Below are positions 610-9,424 of a DNA stretch of 9,424 nucleotides, piece by piece. Each line of letters begins with the position of its first letter. Positions within the stretch are counted from its first letter, which is position 1. The stretch is from a virus (lineage: Duplodnaviria; Heunggongvirae; Uroviricota; Caudoviricetes), in the IMG/VR virus record IMGVR_UViG_2563366805_000008, one strand, 5' to 3'. The notes below the pieces were generated by a model, which searched no databases, was not told where the DNA came from, and was given only the letters and a program-made list of their open reading frames with translations. The position numbers were made by a program, and so were the translations under genes.

Positions 610-1392
610 ATGGACAATATTAATAAACACGGGCTCTCAAGAAGAATACCTGAGACAATAAAACGTCAGATAAGGCAAAGGTGCGGCTTTGGCTGTGTAA
701 TTTGTGGATTTGGATTTTATGATTATGAGCATTTTAAACCTGACTTCGTTGATGCCAAAATACATGATCCGAATGGAATGACACTTCTTTGCTCCCAATG
801 CAATCAAAAAAGAGCTCGTGGTAGACTTTCAGCACAGACAGTGGAAATAGCTGACAGAAATCCCAAGTGCTTACAGGCTGGTTTTGCAAATGAAATGTTT
901 GATTTTCATAATGAGCCTATAACAGTAAAATTTGCAGGAGTGACGTTTCATAACTGTCAAAATTTGATTGTAGTCAACGAACAACCCATTCTTTCTGTGA
1001 AACCTTCACCCATACCACATGGACCGATGCTTTTATCAGGAATTTTCTGTAATTCTATTGGTAAGGAGACTTTACTGATAGATGAAAATGAATGGAAAGC
1101 TAAATCAGACAATTGGGATGTGGAGTGTACCGGCCCGCGTATAACAATACGACGTGGGCCAGGAGAGTTTGCCCTCGTTCTAAAAATGGAACCTCCAACA
1201 GGATTGATTGTTGAGCGTCTTGATATGTTGTATGAAGGGGTCAGGATGAAAGGAGATAAAGATCTGCTGGAAGTTTCGATTAATGGAGGTCCCTTGCACA
1301 GATGGCAATCATGCTCAATGTCAAATTGCCATACAGGGCTTGCGATTCAGGGCGGTATTAGAGCTGCTAATGATCCTTTGTATTGCGCCTAA
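610..1392 (+). CDS. HNH (His-Me finger) nuclease domain protein with uncharacterised ~190-aa C-terminal domain (260 aa)
   Basis: ORF 610-1392. N-terminal ~70 aa carry an HNH zinc-finger layout: C25-x3-C29-x2-C32, Y-E-H41, D-P-N55-G, L-L-C61-x2-C64-N65. Residues ~75-260 match nothing I recognise. Visibly AT-rich with rare codons (AGA, AGG, ATA); my hand count of the first 60 nt gives about 37% G+C versus about 48% for the start of rusA. Weak Shine-Dalgarno. Confidence 0.75.
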   Translation: MDNINKHGLSRRIPETIKRQIRQRCGFGCVICGFGFYDYEHFKPDFVDAKIHDPNGMTLLCSQCNQKRARGRLSAQTVEIADRNPKCLQAGFANEMFDFHNEPITVKFAGVTFHNCQNLIVVNEQPILSVKPSPIPHGPMLLSGIFCNSIGKETLLIDENEWKAKSDNWDVECTGPRITIRRGPGEFALVLKMEPPTGLIVERLDMLYEGVRMKGDKDLLEVSINGGPLHRWQSCSMSNCHTGLAIQGGIRAANDPLYCA

Positions 1393-2210: not shown

Positions 2211-2493
2211 TTTGAGAAAAGCAGCGCGTGGTCGGGAATGCCAGGTAAGAATCCCTGGCGTATGTAATGGCAACCCTGAAACGTCTGTACTGGCACATAT
2301 CCGGCTGGCTGGATTGTGCGGTACCGGTATCAAACCGCCAGACCTGATTGCCACCATTGCATGTTCTGCCTGCCACGACGAAATCGACCGCCGCACACAT
2401 TTTGTCGATGCTGCATATGCAAAAGAATGCGCGCTGGAAGGTATGGCGAGAACACAGGTTATCTGGCTGAAAGAGGGGGTTATTAAGGCGTGA
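2203..2493 (+). CDS. ybcO: YbcO-like protein (DUF1364, putative zinc-binding nuclease; 96 aa)
   Basis: Start ATG 2203 ([14 protein letters not shown]...) preceded by AAGGAGGA at 2193-2200; overlaps the ninE stop by 8 nt. Cys/His-rich. Matches remembered DLP12 YbcO. Confidence 0.85.
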
Positions 2494-2852
2494 ATACCTA
2501 CAGCATCACATTACCCTGGCCTCCGAGCAATAATCGCTATTACCGCCATAATCGCGGGCGCACGCACATCAGCGCAGAGGGGCAGGCATACCGCGATAAC
2601 GTCGCCCGAATCATTAAAAACGCAATGCTGGATATCGGCCTGGCTATGCCTGTGAAAATCCGCATTGAGTGCCACATGCCGGATCGCCGTCGCCGTGACC
2701 TGGATAATCTGCAAAAAGCCGCTTTTGACGCACTCACTAAAGCAGGTTTCTGGCTGGATGATGCTCAGGTCGTTGATTACCGCGTTGTGAAGATGCCTGT
2801 TACCAAAGGTGGGAGGCTGGAACTGACCATCACCGAAATGGGGAATGAATGA
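2490..2852 (+). CDS. rusA: RusA Holliday-junction resolvase (120 aa), GTG start
   Basis: [24 protein letters not shown]... matches remembered E. coli RusA. GTG 2490 overlaps the ybcO TGA (GTGA); GAGGGGG RBS at 2473-2479. Confidence 0.9.
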
Positions 2853-2989
2853 TGTTTGAGTTTTATATGGCAGAACTTCTTCGCCACCGCTGGGGGCATC
2901 TGCGCTTATATCGTTTCCCCGGTTCTGTTTTGACCGATTACCGAATACTGAAGAATTACGCCAAAACCCTGACAGGAGCAGGAGTATGA
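2849..2989 (+). CDS. ylcG: YlcG-like small protein (46 aa)
   Basis: Hand translation: [46 protein letters not shown], stop TGA 2987-2989. ATG 2849 overlaps the rusA stop (ATGA). Not in the ORF track because it is under 60 aa. Confidence 0.6.
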
Positions 2990-3074
2990 AGTCAGAGATA
3001 ACAATCAACTAATACTGTTTTGTTGATTTTTGCTTGTGATTGGCGTTCTGGTCTGATTTTTGTGGAGTAAGTTG

Positions 3075-3458
3075 ATGCGTGATATTCAGATGGTTCTTGA
3101 GCGTTGGGGAGCGTGGGCGGCTAATAATCATGAAGATGTGACCTGGTCGTCCATTGCCGCCGGTTTTAAGGGATTAATTCCTTCAAAAGTAAAATCTCGC
3201 CCGCAATGTTGTGACGATGACGCGATGATCATTTGCGGGTGCATGGCCCGTCTGAAAAAGAACAACAGCGATTTGCACGATTTATTAGTAGATTATTATG
3301 TAGTCGGTATGACATTCATGTCACTGGCAGGTAAGCATTGCTGCTCTGATGGTTATATCGGGAAAAGGTTACAGAAGGCTGAGGGCATAATTGAAGGGAT
3401 GTTAATGGCATTAGATATCCGGTTAGAGATGGATATCGTTGTTAATAACTCTAATTAA
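3075..3458 (+). CDS. quuD: late-gene antiterminator Q (QuuD-like, 127 aa)
   Basis: [24 protein letters not shown]... with Cys-rich zinc-finger region. ATG 3075 preceded by GGAG at 3064-3067. The ORF track's upstream start at 3060 is a TTG with no RBS. Confidence 0.85.
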
Positions 3459-3597
3459 TATGCCAATTGTTTACTAAAAATTATTAAAAATGGGGCGTTG
3501 AGACGCCCCCAAAAATAAAGGGTAATATATAACAGAAGGTTTATATAGTTAGAAGCAAGGTTGTGCTTCTAAAGGAAGTGGCTTGAGGGAGCCACTT
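3459..3597 (+). promoter_or_regulatory. putative late promoter PR'/qut interval downstream of Q
   Basis: By lambdoid architecture PR' lies just 3' of Q and upstream of tR'. Candidate -35 TTGAGA (3498-3503) and -10 TAATAT (3523-3528) with a non-optimal 19-bp spacer. Two further hairpins at 3549-3572 and 3576-3597 resemble the structured 6S-like leader. Exact promoter position not resolved. Confidence 0.35.
3485..3509 (-). terminator. putative intrinsic terminator for the minus-strand porin transcript (GGGGCGT-ctca-ACGCCCC followed by ATTTTT on the minus strand)
   Basis: 7-bp GC-rich stem at 3492-3509 read directly; on the minus strand it is followed by a T5 run. Lies about 140 nt downstream of the porin stop. 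Confidence 0.4.
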
Positions 3598-3638
3598 ATA
3601 TGTTGGGGAGGCAACGCCTCCCGCAACATATCTTTTTC
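3598..3638 (+). terminator. tR'-like intrinsic terminator of the short late leader transcript
   Basis: ATATGTTG-GGGAGGC-aac-GCCTCCC-g-CAACATAT (3598-3631) followed by CTTTTTC (3632-3638). Strong GC-rich stem plus T-run on the + strand, about 140 nt after the Q stop. Confidence 0.6.
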
Positions 3639-3647
3639 GTAATCAGA

Positions 3648-4745
3648 TTAGAACTGGTAAACCAGACCTACAGCAACGATGTCATCAGTGCTTACACCGA
3701 GTGCTTTAGTGAAGTCATTTTTGTCAAGCAGGTTGATTTTGTAATCAACGAAAGTAGACATATTTTTGTTGAAGTAATAGGTTGCACCTACATCAACATA
3801 TTTGACTAAGTCCTGATCGCCCCATACTCCAAGATCTTTACCTTTAGATTGCAGGTAAGCAACGGACGGACGCAGACCGAAATCGAACTGATATTGTGCA
3901 ACAGCTTCGAAGTTTTGGGCTTTATTAGCAACGAAGTGATCAGCAAATACAGTCATATTCTGGGTTTCAGAATAGGTAGTGGCCAGGTAAATGTTGTTAG
4001 CGTCATATTTCAGACCTGCGGCCCAAACTTCTGCATTTTTACCGGAAGCAAATACTTCAGGAAGAACTTTCCCTGCATTAACTTGAGTGTCGGTACGATC
4101 AGATTTCGCATAAGTTGCACCGATACCGAATCCTTCGTATTCATAGGTAGCAGAGAAACCGAAGCCATCACCGTTACCTTCAGTGTAGTTATCGAAATCG
4201 CTACGATCGTTTTTGCCTTGGTACTGAGCAGCAAAGTTCAGACCATCAACCAGACCAAAGAAGTCGTTGTTACGATAGGTTGCAACACCAGTGGTGCGAC
4301 CAGTCATGAACACATCTGTTTGGGTCCAGGTATCGCCACCGAATTCTGGCAGAACGTCAGTCCACGCACCGATGTCGTATGCTACACCGTAGTTACGGCC
4401 GTAATCGATTGAGCCGTAGTCACCGAATTTCAGGCCTGCAAATGCAAGACGGGTTTTGTCTTTGGAGGAACCTTGAGATTCAGCGCGGTTGCCTTTGAAT
4501 TCATATTCCCACTGACCGAAACCAGTCAGTTGATCGTTGATTTGGGTTTCACCTTTGAAGCCAAGACGGGCATAAGTAGTATCACCATCATCTGCATCAT
4601 TAGAGGAGAAGTAGTGCTTGGCATTAACTTTCCCGTACAGATCCAGCTTGTTACTGTCTTTATTATAAATTTCAGCTGCCTGAGCAGACATCGCCATCAG
4701 TACTGATGCAGCTACAGCAGAAATTGCCACTGTTAATTTTTTCAT
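3648..4745 (-). CDS. nmpC: outer-membrane porin, NmpC/OmpD/Lc family (365 aa), apparently intact
   Basis: Signal peptide [23 protein letters not shown] then AEIYNKD; general-porin motifs; C-terminal VAVGLVYQF beta-barrel signature. Uninterrupted 1098-nt ORF. RBS AAGGG upstream of ATG (plus strand 4743-4745 = CAT). Confidence 0.9.
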
Positions 4746-5334
4746 CGTGAGCCCTTTTTTTTGAACTATTATTAAAAAATGATGTCACTGCGCGATAAAT
4801 ATTCATCTAATCAATGTGATTATTTCAAGATGTAAGTTTTGGTTTCTCGTTTGATTTGTGAAGTAGATCTCTATTTTTATCTGAACTTTTTTCTATCGAA
4901 TCCTATTCATAGCTCTTGGCTGAATAAAAATAAATCTATTAGCCAATTTATATTAACAGCTGTTATTTATAAGTGCTCTATAATTTGAAGGTTCAATTTA
5001 AATCGGCTAAAAATAACACTGGAAATTATTTGTTGGTTATTTGTTGAGGTTTTCTTATGTATTTGTGGTGGTGTTTTGAACACTCGGTAGCATTCTCATA
5101 AATATCATTCAGTGGTTTACGTACGTAAAAAATTGGTTATGCTGTTAAGAGTGGTTACTTCGTCACACAGCTTAAACCCGCCGTCGAGCTGGTTTTTCCA
5201 TTTTTTGAGTCTCGATATTAGCTGATAACTCAATACCTGAGTTATTCACTGACTCCGAGTCTGTTACGTTTCTGCTTTTTTGCGATACGTTGTATTCCCT
5301 CAATTTACACCCGCTTTGTCTGCGAGGTGGGGTT
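4746..5334. promoter_or_regulatory. long AT-rich intergenic region upstream of the porin gene and upstream of the lysis cassette
   Basis: About 590 bp with no convincing ORF, many A/T tracts and a short inverted repeat ATAACTCA-atacc-TGAGTTAT around 5225-5245. Presumed porin promoter/regulatory region; no specific binding site could be assigned by eye. Confidence 0.3.
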
Positions 5335-5550
5335 ATGAAATCCATGGATAAGTTAACAACGGGTGTCGCCTATGGCACCTCAGCAGGTAGTGCCGGTTAC
5401 TGGTTTTTACAGCTGCTCGATAAAGTCACGCCCTCACAGTGGGCAGCAATAGGTGTGCTGGGTAGCCTGGTATTTGGCCTGCTGACGTACCTGACAAACC
5501 TTTATTTCAAGATTAAAGAAGATAAGCGCAAGGCTGCGAGAGGTGAATAA
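5335..5550 (+). CDS. essD: S21-type pinholin (71 aa) with dual-start motif MKSM
   Basis: [26 protein letters not shown]... matches the phage-21 S / EssD class. Two in-frame Met codons (M1, M4) typical of holin/antiholin pairs. RBS GAGGTGGGG at 5324-5332. Stop TAA 5548-5550 overlaps the endolysin ATG. Confidence 0.85.
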
Positions 5551-6047
5551 TGCCTCCATCATTACGAAAAGCCGTTGCTGCTGCTATTGGTGGCGGAGCA
5601 ATTGCTATAGCATCAGTGTTAATTACTGGCCCAAGTGGTAACGATGGTCTGGAAGGTGTCAGCTACATACCATACAAAGATATTGTTGGTGTATGGACTG
5701 TATGTCACGGGCATACAGGAAAAGACATCATGCTCGGTAAAACGTATACCAAAGCAGAATGCAAAGCCCTCCTGAATAAAGACCTTGCCACGGTCGCCAG
5801 ACAAATTAACCCGTACATCAAAGTCGATATACCGGAAACAATGCGCGGCGCTCTTTACTCATTCGTTTACAACGTGGGTGCTGGCAATTTCAGAACATCG
5901 ACGCTTCTTCGCAAAATAAACCAGGGCGATATCAAAGGCGCATGTGATCAGCTACGTCGCTGGACATATGCTGGCGGTAAGCAATGGAAAGGTCTCATGA
6001 CTCGTCGTGAGATTGAGCGTGAAATCTGTTTGTGGGGTCAGCAATGA
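5550..6047 (+). CDS. rrrD: SAR endolysin (R21-type lysozyme, 165 aa)
   Basis: N-terminal signal-anchor-release segment [20 protein letters not shown]; catalytic triad at E35, D44, T50 as in phage-21 R. Stop TGA 6045-6047 overlaps the Rz ATG at 6044. Confidence 0.9.
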
Positions 6048-6505
6048 ACAGAGTAACCGCGATTATCTCCGCTCTGGTTATCTGCATCATCGTCGGCCTG
6101 TCATGGGCTGTTAATCATTACCGTGATAACGCCATTACCTACAAAGCCCAGCGCGACAAAAATGCCAGAGAACTGAAGCTGGCGAACGCGGCAATTACTG
6201 ACATGCAGATGCGTCAGCGTGATGTTGCTGCGCTCGATGCAAAATACACGAAGGAGTTAGCTGATGCGAAAGCTGAAAATGATGCTCTGCGTGATGATGT
6301 TGCCGCTGGTCGTCGTCGGTTGCACATCAAAGCAGTCTGTCAGTCAGTGCGTGAAGCCACCACCGCCTCCGGCGTGGATAATGCAGCCTCCCCCCGACTG
6401 GCAGACACCGCTGAACGGGATTATTTCACCCTCAGAGAGAGGCTGATCACTATGCAAAAACAACTGGAAGGAACCCAGAAGTATATTAATGAGCAGTGCA
6501 GATAG
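6044..6505 (+). CDS. rzpD: Rz i-spanin (153 aa)
   Basis: N-terminal transmembrane segment [18 protein letters not shown] followed by a charged coiled-coil-like region. ATG 6044 overlaps the endolysin stop (ATGA). Confidence 0.85.
6264..6446 (+). CDS. rzoD: Rz1 o-spanin lipoprotein (60 aa), embedded in the +1 frame of Rz
   Basis: Lipobox LVVVGC, proline-rich mature part ([15 protein letters not shown]). Strong SD AAGGAG at 6251-6256, 7 nt before ATG 6264. Lies entirely inside Rz. Confidence 0.8.
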
Positions 6506-6536
6506 AGCTGCCCATATCGATGGGCAACTCATGCAA

Positions 6537-6830
6537 TTATTGTGAGCAATACACACGCGCTTCCAGCGGAGTATAAATGCCTAAAGTAATAAAACCGAGC
6601 AATCCATTTACGAATGTTTGCTGGGTTTCTGTTTTAACAACATTTTCTGCGCCGCCACAAATTTTGGCTGCATCAACAGTTTTCTCCTGTCCAATTCCCG
6701 AAACGAAGAAGTGATGGGTGATGGTTTCCTTTGGTGTTACTGCTGTCGGTTTGTTTCCAACAGTAAACGTCTGTTGAGCACATCCTGTAATAAGCATTGC
6801 CAGAGCGGCAGAAAACAACATTTTTTTCAT
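6537..6830 (-). CDS. borD: Bor lipoprotein (97 aa; Iss-like serum-resistance family)
   Basis: MKKMLFSAALAMLITGCAQQ... with lipobox ITGC; matches remembered lambda Bor / DLP12 BorD. The ORF track's longer N-terminus (from 6878) is not supported by the homologue start. Confidence 0.85.
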   Translation of the reverse strand: MKKMLFSAALAMLITGCAQQTFTVGNKPTAVTPKETITHHFFVSGIGQEKTVDAAKICGGAENVVKTETQQTFVNGLLGFITLGIYTPLEARVYCSQ

Positions 6831-7264
6831 CTTATTATCCTGCATTGTTAAAAATGGCAGAATCCTATGTGACAACAATTAAACGATAGTTAAATGGATT
6901 GATGAAAATTAAAACTATATAGGTGTACGCTCAGACTATTGGAGGAAGTTGGGGACACTCAGAATCCTGTGGAATGAAATAAACCGGTCTATCCGTCTAT
7001 TACCCTTTTAGCTGCGCTGTATCGTCGCCGTATTCCCGCATTAACCATGACCGTAGCCCGACGGGGAATTCCTTCTGCGTGAGTGTGCGGGAATAATCAA
7101 AAACGATGCACACCGGGTTTTACTGTGCTGACAGACGCAGGGTTACCCTCATAGTCGCTTTTCCGGTGCGATGGTGGAAGAAACCGGGATGTTCATCCAT
7201 CATCACTTTGGATTGATGTATATGCTCTCTTTTCTGACGTTAGTCTCCGACGGCAGGCTTCAAT

Positions 7265-8839
7265 GAGGGGAATACCAACATCTCCGGCGTCACGGTGGTG
7301 TTCCGGGCCGGTGAGCAGGAGCAGACACCGCCGGAGGGATTTGAATCCTCCGGCTCCGAGACGGTGCTGGGTACGGAAGTGAAATACGACACGCCGATCA
7401 CCCGGACCATCACGTCGGCAAACATTGACCGACTGCGTTTTACCTTCGGCGTGCAGGCACTGGTGGAAACCACCTCAAAGGGGGACAGGAATCCGTCGGA
7501 AGTCCGCCTGCTGGTTCAGATACAGCGTAATGGTGGCTGGGTGACGGAAAAAGACATCACCATTAAGGGCAAAACCACCTCGCAGTATCTGGCCTCGGTG
7601 GTGGTGGGTAACCTGCCGCCGCGCCCGTTCAGTATACGGATGCGCAGGATGACGCCGGACAGCACCACAGACCAGCTGCAGAACAAAACGCTCTGGTCGT
7701 CATACACCGAAATCATCGATGTGAAACAGTGCTACCCGAACCAGAGCGGCACGGTGAATGGTGTCACGCCGCCAGCGGTGCAGCATCTGACCGCCGAAGT
7801 CACCGCAGACAGCGGGGAATACCAGGTGCTGGCCCGCTGGGACACGCCGAAGGTGGTGAAGGGCGTGAGCTTCCTGCTTCGCCTGACCGTGGCAGCGGAT
7901 GACGGCAGTGAGCGGCTGGTCAGCACGGCCCGGACGACGGAAACCACTTACCGCTTCACACAACTGGCTCTGGGGAACTACAGGCTGACAGTCCGGGCAG
8001 TAAATGCGTGGGGGCAGCAGGGCGATCCGGCGTCGGTATCGTTCCGGATTGCCGCACCGGCAGCGCCGTCGCGGATTGAGCTGACGCCGGGCTATTTTCA
8101 GATAACCGCCACGCCGCATCTTGCGGTTTATGATCCGACGGTACAGTTTGAGTTCTGGTTCTCGGAAAAGCGGATTGCGGATATCAGGCAGGTTGAAACC
8201 ACAGCACGCTATCTTGGCACGGCGCTGTACTGGATAGCCGCCAGTATCAATATCAGGCCGGGCCATAATTATTATTTTTACGTTCGCAGTGTGAACACCG
8301 TTGGCAAATCGGCATTCGTGGAGGCTGTTGGTCAGCCGAGTGATGACGCATCCGGCTATCTGGATTTTTTCAAAGGCGAGATAGGGAAAACCCATCTGGC
8401 TCAGGAGCTGTGGACGCAGATTGATAACGGTCAGCTTGCGCCTGACCTGGCTGAAATCAGGACATCCATTACGGATGTCAGCAATGAAATCACACAGACC
8501 GTCAATAAGAAACTGGAAGACCAGAGTGCGGCAATTCAGCAGATACAGAAGGTTCAGGTTGATACAAATAATAACCTGAACAGCATGTGGGCTGTGAAGC
8601 TGCAGCAGATGCAGGACGGACGCCTTTATATCGCGGGTATTGGTGCCGGTATTGAGAACACCCCTGACGGCATGCAGAGTCAGGTGCTGCTGGCGGCAGA
8701 CAGGATTGCGATGATTAATCCTGCGAATGGCAACATAAAGCCGATGTTTGTTGGGCAGGGCGATCAGATATTCATGAACGAAGTGTTCCTGAAACGCCTG
8801 ACGGCTCCCACCATTACCAGCGGCGGTAATCCTCCGGTA
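7265..8839 (+). pseudogene. J: remnant of host-specificity / tail-tip protein J: 5'-truncated, apparent internal in-frame deletion near 7741, 3' end replaced by fusion to tfa
   Basis: Frame opens at 7244 after TAG 7241-7243; first possible start is GTG 7295. Homology to my recollection of lambda J begins near codon 56 ([20 protein letters not shown]...), runs to ...[10 protein letters not shown], then jumps to [20 protein letters not shown] (FN3-like region) and ends at ...[16 protein letters not shown]. No J N-terminus and no receptor-binding C-terminus. Confidence 0.65.
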
Positions 8840-9424
8840 ATGGCATTCAGAATGAGTGAACAACCACGGACCATAAAAATTTATAATCTGCTGGCCGGAA
8901 CTAATGAATTTATTGGTGAAGGTGACGCATATATTCCGCCTCATACAGGTCTGCCAGCAAACAGTACCGATATTGCACCGCCAGATATTCCGGCTGGCTT
9001 TGTGGCTGTTTTCAACAGTGATGAGGCATCGTGGCATCTCGTTGAAGATCATCGGGGAAAAACCGTCTATGACGTGGCTTCCGGCGACGCGTTATTTATT
9101 TCTGAACTTGGCTCGTTACCGGAAAATGTCACCTGGTTATCGCCGGAAGGGGAATATCAGAAGTGGAACGGCACAGCCTGGGTGAAGGATACGGAAGCAG
9201 AAAAACTGTTCCGGATCCGGGAGGCGGAAGAAACAAAAAACAGCCTGATGCAGGTAGCCAGTGAGCATATAGCGCCACTTCAGGATGCTGTAGATCTGGA
9301 GATCGCAACGGAGGAAGAAACCTCATTGCTGGAAGCCTGGAAAAAATATCGGGTGTTGCTGAACCGTGTTAATACAACAACTGCACCGGATATTGAATGG
9401 CCAACAGTACCCATTATCGAATAG
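8840..9424 (+). CDS. tfa: tail fiber assembly protein Tfa (194 aa), in frame with the upstream J remnant
   Basis: [49 protein letters not shown]... through ...[11 protein letters not shown] matches remembered lambda/e14 Tfa over its full length. ATG 8840; stop TAG 9422-9424 at the window end. No good SD upstream, and a TAA at 8838-8840 in another frame suggests a relic of the former stf stop. Confidence 0.75.

Follow-up and report, generated by a model that had tools for sequence, protein, structure and literature searches.

A microhomology junction between ylcI and J in a defective lambdoid prophage resembling DLP12

Results

The 9,424-bp stretch of DNA analysed here (hereafter the window) covers the right half of a lambdoid prophage that is DLP12-like, defective and located at the lambda attachment site; in it, a lysis and bor module is followed directly by a fragment of the tail gene J. 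The junction between the two (junction 1, 7264-7266) is lineage-specific and is real, because it is seen in two independent assemblies as well as in the window; very probably it is the product of one illegitimate recombination event in an integrated prophage, by which about 16 kb were removed.

Homology on the left side is unbroken from 2404 to 7266, with 99.4% identity to the prophage of E. coli CUPS03 and 95.0% to phage 2G7b, and then ends, while homology to J is unambiguous from 7267 and extends back to 7264, which corresponds to J codon 56. Three-way alignments with CUPS03 and 2G7b therefore place the deletion junction at 7264..7266, where a 3-bp microhomology (TGA) is common to the ylcI and J sides. 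The parental sequences read CAATGA/CCC on the ylcI side and CAGTGA/GGG on the J side (the slash marking the breakpoint), no DNA is inserted between the ylcI and J sequences, and both genes are cut, ylcI at codon 41 and J at codon 56. An earlier note on this DNA had claimed that the lysis/bor module abuts a J fragment beginning near codon 56, had supposed that the roughly 430-bp interval between them may hold a deletion scar and had proposed an alignment against lambdoid phages as a check; this alignment locates the junction and confirms the first claim, and the scar does exist, although at the very right edge of the interval. A microhomology of 3 bp discriminates only weakly between mechanisms of joining, and chance yields it at a few percent of random junctions. 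A deletion mediated by an insertion sequence was considered and rejected, as no IS end, inverted repeat or target-site duplication is present at junction 1; the closest copy of IS3 is some 11 kb to the left of it, outside the window.

The interval 6831-7266 itself is, as its alignments show, the native bor-ylcI spacer followed by the 3' end of ylcI and not foreign DNA. Position 6831 is the first base upstream of the bor ATG, and 436 bp separate the start of bor from J, so that the size given for a non-coding-looking gap of about 430 bp was correct, but the interval also carries the end of a gene. The intergenic spacer proper (6831..7192, no strand assigned) is contiguous with bor in lambdoid phages and in the CUPS03 prophage, with identities of 97.5-98.3% in phages 2G7b, ev207, Turner and 434 and of 100% in the CUPS03 prophage. 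Many "Lambda_ev" isolates likewise carry the interval at about 98% identity up to 7266, and homology is also unbroken to 7266 in the best-matching E. coli prophages (the bor/J query has matches in thousands of E. coli records). Within 6831-7192 all ORFs are 37 aa or shorter, an Rfam scan found no family at gathering score, and promoter-like and terminator-like sites were not above shuffled controls; the curated record of phage 434 has nothing annotated between bor and the DUF3950 gene. A CRISPR-repeat Rfam match at the junction, obtained in E-value mode, was read as chance (20 bits against a gathering score of 35 bits, E=0.91).

The remnant of ylcI (YlcI/YnfO, DUF3950; 7193..7266, minus strand) consists of the last 24 codons and the stop codon, the N-terminal 40 codons having been deleted, and its translation agrees without a difference with the C-terminal end of YlcI from CUPS03 (64 aa); translated from the minus strand, 7193-7267 gives the exact YlcI C-terminus except for the first codon, which spans the junction. 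The remnant has no Pfam match, a complete 64-aa frame with a start codon is absent, and RefSeq calls it in strain AW1.7 a pseudogene with its N-terminus missing. In other phages and prophages the sequence runs on into the 64-codon minus-strand ylcI, then into cos and then into the small terminase gene. The ORF at 7189-7266 on the plus strand, previously offered as an example of short ORFs of unknown origin, was rejected as a gene: it is antisense to the ylcI remnant, its stop is the junction TGA, and the sequence in which it lies is known phage sequence.

The extent of the loss can be read from phage 2G7b (NC_049954; 47,142 bp), in which the rusA-ylcG-Q-porin-lysis-bor-ylcI block is found at 41977-46822. 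The missing stretch corresponds, in prophage order, to 46823-47142 plus 1-15667 of this genome, i.e., to 15,987 bp, which makes the first figure of about 20 kb an overestimate. Lost with it were 40 codons of ylcI, the cos region, gp01-gp19 and 55 codons of J. In 2G7b, gp01-gp19 comprise both terminase subunits, the portal, the protease/scaffold, the decoration and major capsid proteins and FI, followed by the head-tail joining proteins, the tail tube, chaperones, the tape measure and M, L, K and I, and this gene content bears out the proposed deletion of cos, terminase, head and tail genes. In phage 434 (OL657226) cosQ is annotated about 290 bp past the left breakpoint, and in intact phages the interval lies about 320 bp from the right cohesive end.

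Beyond junction 1, J has decayed further. Its first fragment (7264..7741, plus strand) covers codons 56-214, includes the Pfam domain FNIII-A_GpJ (E=8e-41) and is 99.6% identical to the J of 2G7b (positions 15662-16142) and 96.3% identical to that of CUPS03. The second fragment (7740..8837, plus strand) starts from codon 609, is without about the last 192 codons, contains the Pfam domains Ig_J, Ig_J_second and Phage_Tail_Tip and matches the J gene of UTME-7 at 3001-4098 of locus L005, where the J CDS ends at 4676. The two fragments meet within J at junction 2 (7740-7741), which has a 2-bp microhomology (AC) and at which 1182 bp (394 codons, 215-608 of the 2G7b J) are gone in frame. Junction 3, between 8837 and 8838, is a blunt join of J' to tfa, 2 nt before the tfa ATG, with the frame kept; it removes about the last 192 codons of J together with whatever separated J from tfa, and the UTME-7 counterpart of the missing stretch, 1,414 bp long, contains remnants of lom and stf. 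Junctions 2 and 3 were not found outside AW1.7 among 5,426 complete E. coli genomes.

The tail-fibre assembly gene tfa (8840..9424, plus strand; 194 aa; Caudo_TAP in Pfam, E=2.4e-42) is intact and 100% identical to the tfa of UTME-7, the protein having the accession WP_000885606.1 in both AW1.7 and UTME-7. A full-length Rfam match to IS009 (RF02111) was seen inside the tfa CDS at 9183-9381 on the plus strand (225 bits against a gathering score of 117). As a consequence of the retained frame, an open J'-Tfa frame of 709 aa extends from a GTG at 7295 to 9424, immediately following the Q-dependent late operon, and contains the Pfam domains FNIII-A_GpJ, Ig_J, Ig_J_second, Phage_Tail_Tip and Caudo_TAP. 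Functional lambda gpJ is a protein of about 1130 aa with an N-terminus, central domains and a C-terminal receptor-binding domain; the J described here lacks codons 1-55, 215-608 and about the last 192, and is called a pseudogene by RefSeq in AW1.7.

The genes to the left of the interval present a different picture, as Q, porin, holin, lysozyme, Rz/Rz1 and bor are intact. The Q-type late antiterminator (3075..3458, plus strand; named quuD in the AW1.7 annotation) is a full-length protein of 127 aa, with a Pfam match to Phage_antitermQ over the whole profile (E=8.5e-54, 1-118/118). The NmpC-like porin gene (3648..4745, minus strand; 365 aa) matches the full profile of Porin_1 (E=1e-156), and its protein accession, WP_000737266.1, is common to AW1.7 and CUPS03. 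The lysis cassette (5335..6505, plus strand), with genes named as in the AW1.7 annotation, is made up of the holin gene essD (5335-5550, Phage_holin_2_1), the lysozyme gene rrrD (5550-6047, Phage_lysozyme), rzpD (6044-6505, Phage_lysis) and, nested in rzpD, rzoD (6264-6446, Rz1), all four on the plus strand and all with full-length Pfam matches. The outer-membrane lipoprotein gene bor/iss (6537..6830, minus strand; 97 aa; iss in AW1.7) matches Lambda_Bor (E=6.4e-31). Q, holin, endolysin, Rz/Rz1 and bor follow one another in lambda order, and the full-length Pfam matches of all six proteins and of the porin substantiate what the earlier note had described as apparently intact Q, lysis, porin and bor genes.

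The only full-length matches to 6500-7600 in a megablast search of the 5,426 complete E. coli genomes were the two deposited assemblies of AW1.7. A base-by-base comparison shows that the AW1.7 locus (L001) at 7502-16925 is the window apart from 4 SNPs, at positions 1120, 7075, 7169 and 7406, which traces the window to AW1.7 or to a strain very close to it. Three of these four differences (7075, 7169 and 7406) fall inside 332 bp around junction 1, and at 7075 and 7169 the window has the base of the CUPS03 prophage and not that of AW1.7; the cluster could be due to a sister strain, to assembly errors or to a small conversion patch.

In AW1.7, a strain of serotype O128ac:H12, the whole element is 17.2 kb in size and is located between ybhC and ybhB-bioA. 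The 15-bp lambda att core GCTTTTTTATACTAA is present at either end without a mismatch, at L001 1764 and at 18971, so that it spans L001 1764-18985 with the att cores included; int and J have the orientation that they have in a lambda prophage. Its annotation begins with an integrase fragment beside IS3 (the integrase being truncated at IS3), an outer-membrane protein gene, a ren fragment, emrE and ybcK, continues with ybcN, ninE, ybcO, rusA, ylcG, quuD, the porin gene, essD, rrrD and rzpD, and ends with iss/bor, partial ylcI, partial J, tfa and a diguanylate cyclase gene. Between the att cores no terminase, portal, capsid, tail tube or tape-measure genes are annotated, which agrees with the view that the prophage is defective for particle formation, and no cI, cro, N, O or P is annotated in the element. 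The diguanylate cyclase gene, which encodes a sensor domain, lies at L001 16999-18330, to the right of tfa, before attR and outside the window, is also present in UTME-7 and is apparently prophage cargo at the lambda att site. In the window an ORF at 610-1392 (plus strand, 260 aa) has a Cys-rich N-terminus, looks HNH-like by eye and is annotated as hypothetical in AW1.7; K-12 DLP12 has ybcL/ybcM at this place.

Junction 1, searched for with a 200-bp query centred on it, is spanned only by AW1.7 among the 5,426 complete E. coli genomes, where it is carried by both separately deposited complete assemblies. In 50,697 phage records, the interval was joined to J in 0 of 323 matching records by megablast and in 0 of 466 by blastn; the earlier note had named an intact phage with the interval immediately upstream of J as the finding that would speak against a deletion, and none appeared. 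Likewise, no plasmid among 72,556 joins the bor interval to J, and an exact 31-mer spanning the junction is absent from metagenome contigs and from the GTDB representative genomes. Sequences of bor and J occur at a median of 2-4 places per E. coli genome, and in AW1.7 itself, beyond the locus of the window, one further place matches the junction-spanning queries and two match the J-tfa query, the sole hint that the lost genes might be present elsewhere in this genome. A literature search on prophages of AW1.7 returned nothing specific, the results concerning the locus of heat resistance.

Discussion

The arrangement would be accounted for by one illegitimate recombination between ylcI, behind which only cos follows, and J, with the breakpoints inside the former and at codon 56 of the latter. 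Such a joining would have taken place without long homology, only 3 bp being common to both sides, and would have removed about 16 kb with cosQ/N/B, the genes of the two terminase subunits, the complete set of head genes and all the tail genes that precede J, probably as an intramolecular deletion in the integrated prophage by recombination at the level of microhomology or by end-joining. The deletion is internal to an element that keeps both att cores in lambda orientation. As J carries two further deletions, the loss of the morphogenesis genes took at least three events.

A single ancestral prophage with both halves is something that we infer and have not found, because the closest relatives of the two sides differ, the left side being closest to CUPS03 and the J fragment to 2G7b. 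The same difference would be expected if junction 1 were an illegitimate joining of two different lambdoid prophages or phage genomes and not an internal deletion, for example of a DLP12-like late region with the tail end of a separate lambda-att prophage. Also in keeping with such a join, the left part is DLP12-like and DLP12 normally lies at argU, yet the element is found at attB-lambda; an IS3 boundary marks the precise start of the homology to K-12 DLP12, a hint of an earlier IS-mediated rearrangement; and the right-hand end seen here is attached, in UTME-7, to genes of the Rac region, indicating that the locus undergoes rearrangement between prophages. Lambdoid genomes are, however, mosaic, so that nearest relatives differing from module to module are the norm, and the intact phage 2G7b already combines this late module with this type of J, while both att cores and the lambda-type order int, Q, lysis, J fit one integrated prophage. 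A join of two genomes is therefore considered unlikely as well as unnecessary, and the outcome would be unchanged in any case.

That bor just upstream of J simply represents the alternative gene order of a functional phage is scarcely credible, given that none of the matching phage records holds both halves in one place and that ylcI and J are both truncated at the junction. An assembly artefact, in which two repeated prophage regions were chimerically joined, might be suspected since repeats of lambdoid prophages commonly cause misassembly and bor and J are typically present in several copies per genome, but the same join in two separately deposited AW1.7 assemblies, and in a window that differs from both by 4 SNPs, leaves this explanation with a negligible probability.

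The deletion within one integrated prophage, which is the reading preferred here, would leave an element able neither to be packaged, because it is without cos and terminase, nor to build particles. Judging from gene content, lysis after mitomycin C treatment is not expected from the element alone, and induction via the repressor circuit would be impossible because cI, N, O and P are absent. The late genes would probably be read only at a low level or when Q protein is supplied, and a Q-dependent late transcript would now cross the lysis genes, bor in antisense and then J'-tfa. The retention of the lysis genes, bor and porin may reflect a benefit to the host, as has been reported for K-12 DLP12, or too little time for decay.

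It is very unlikely, though conceivable, that the J'-Tfa chimera and the retained Q-lysis-bor-porin genes form a domesticated module which is expressed and which selection maintains. In that event J'-Tfa might serve as an envelope or receptor-blocking protein, or the Q protein of a lambdoid phage, whether infecting the cell or already resident in it, might set off the lysis cassette in trans; otherwise all of this would simply be young debris.

The junction is a strain-specific instance of the well-known decay of prophages, and both the ylcI and the J fragment are already labelled as pseudogenes in RefSeq. What it provides is a base-exact example of how a lambdoid prophage may be grounded, here apparently by an end-joining-type deletion that took cos and 19 morphogenesis genes. 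For annotation, this means that ylcI and J are to be treated as pseudogene fragments and the 436-bp interval as native phage sequence. In AW1.7-type strains the element is predicted to yield no phage, although incoming lambdoid phages could still switch on its intact Q-lysis cassette or recombine with it.

Comparison with known phages and prophages

Phages 2G7b and 434 resemble the window in having the same right end, Q-porin-lysis-bor-spacer-ylcI, at 95-98% identity, and 2G7b also has the same type of J (99.6% over codons 56-214). Unlike in the window, ylcI and J are complete in both, and cos and the 19 genes for packaging, head and tail are retained.

E. coli UTME-7, in which the same attB-lambda prophage is seen in another state of decay, shares with the window and AW1.7 an identical Tfa protein, the diguanylate-cyclase gene beside ybhB and a truncated J. 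It differs in keeping the C-terminus of J and the lom/stf remnants (J'-lom'-stf'-tfa), and junctions 1-3 are absent from it. In the UTME-7 locus (L005 1-9099) trkG/ynaK, which belong to the Rac region, are joined to the left of the attR-side module, and a large inter-prophage rearrangement in UTME-7 can be deduced from this.

The closest parallel in overall organisation is offered by K-12 DLP12, which has the same series of genes, ren'-emrE-ybcK ... ybcN-ninE-ybcO-rusA-ylcG-quuD-porin-essD-rrrD-rzpD/rzoD-bor ... tfa, with DNA identities of 95.7-98% over the ren'-ybcK and ybcN-bor blocks and of 93% in tfa, and in which the head and tail genes have likewise been deleted and the lysis cassette left intact. 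The homology between the two has its exact starting point at the right-hand edge of the IS3C copy in renD (L004 4035), a coincidence suggesting either a rearrangement linked to IS3 or common descent with an element that was defective already. In K-12 the essD-ybcS-rzpD/rzoD operon of DLP12 is reported to be transcribed and to affect cell-wall maintenance, biofilm and vesicle production (PMC7918800), and a contribution to stress tolerance has been reported for cryptic prophages in general (PMC3105296).

The differences are nevertheless clear. The spacer of K-12 DLP12 has ybcV and ybcW inserted, both of which are absent from the window element, its ybcL/ybcM are replaced by other ORFs in the latter, and its porin homologue is interrupted by IS5, whereas the NmpC-type porin of the window is unbroken. 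DLP12 lies at argU and the window element at attB-lambda, between ybhC and ybhB, and because it is not found at argU, the element is DLP12-like and not DLP12 itself. The breakpoints also differ, since in K-12 DLP12 aaaD' (a terminase fragment) is joined to tfaD, and ylcI, cos and nohD are kept; the same outcome has thus been reached independently in the two prophages.
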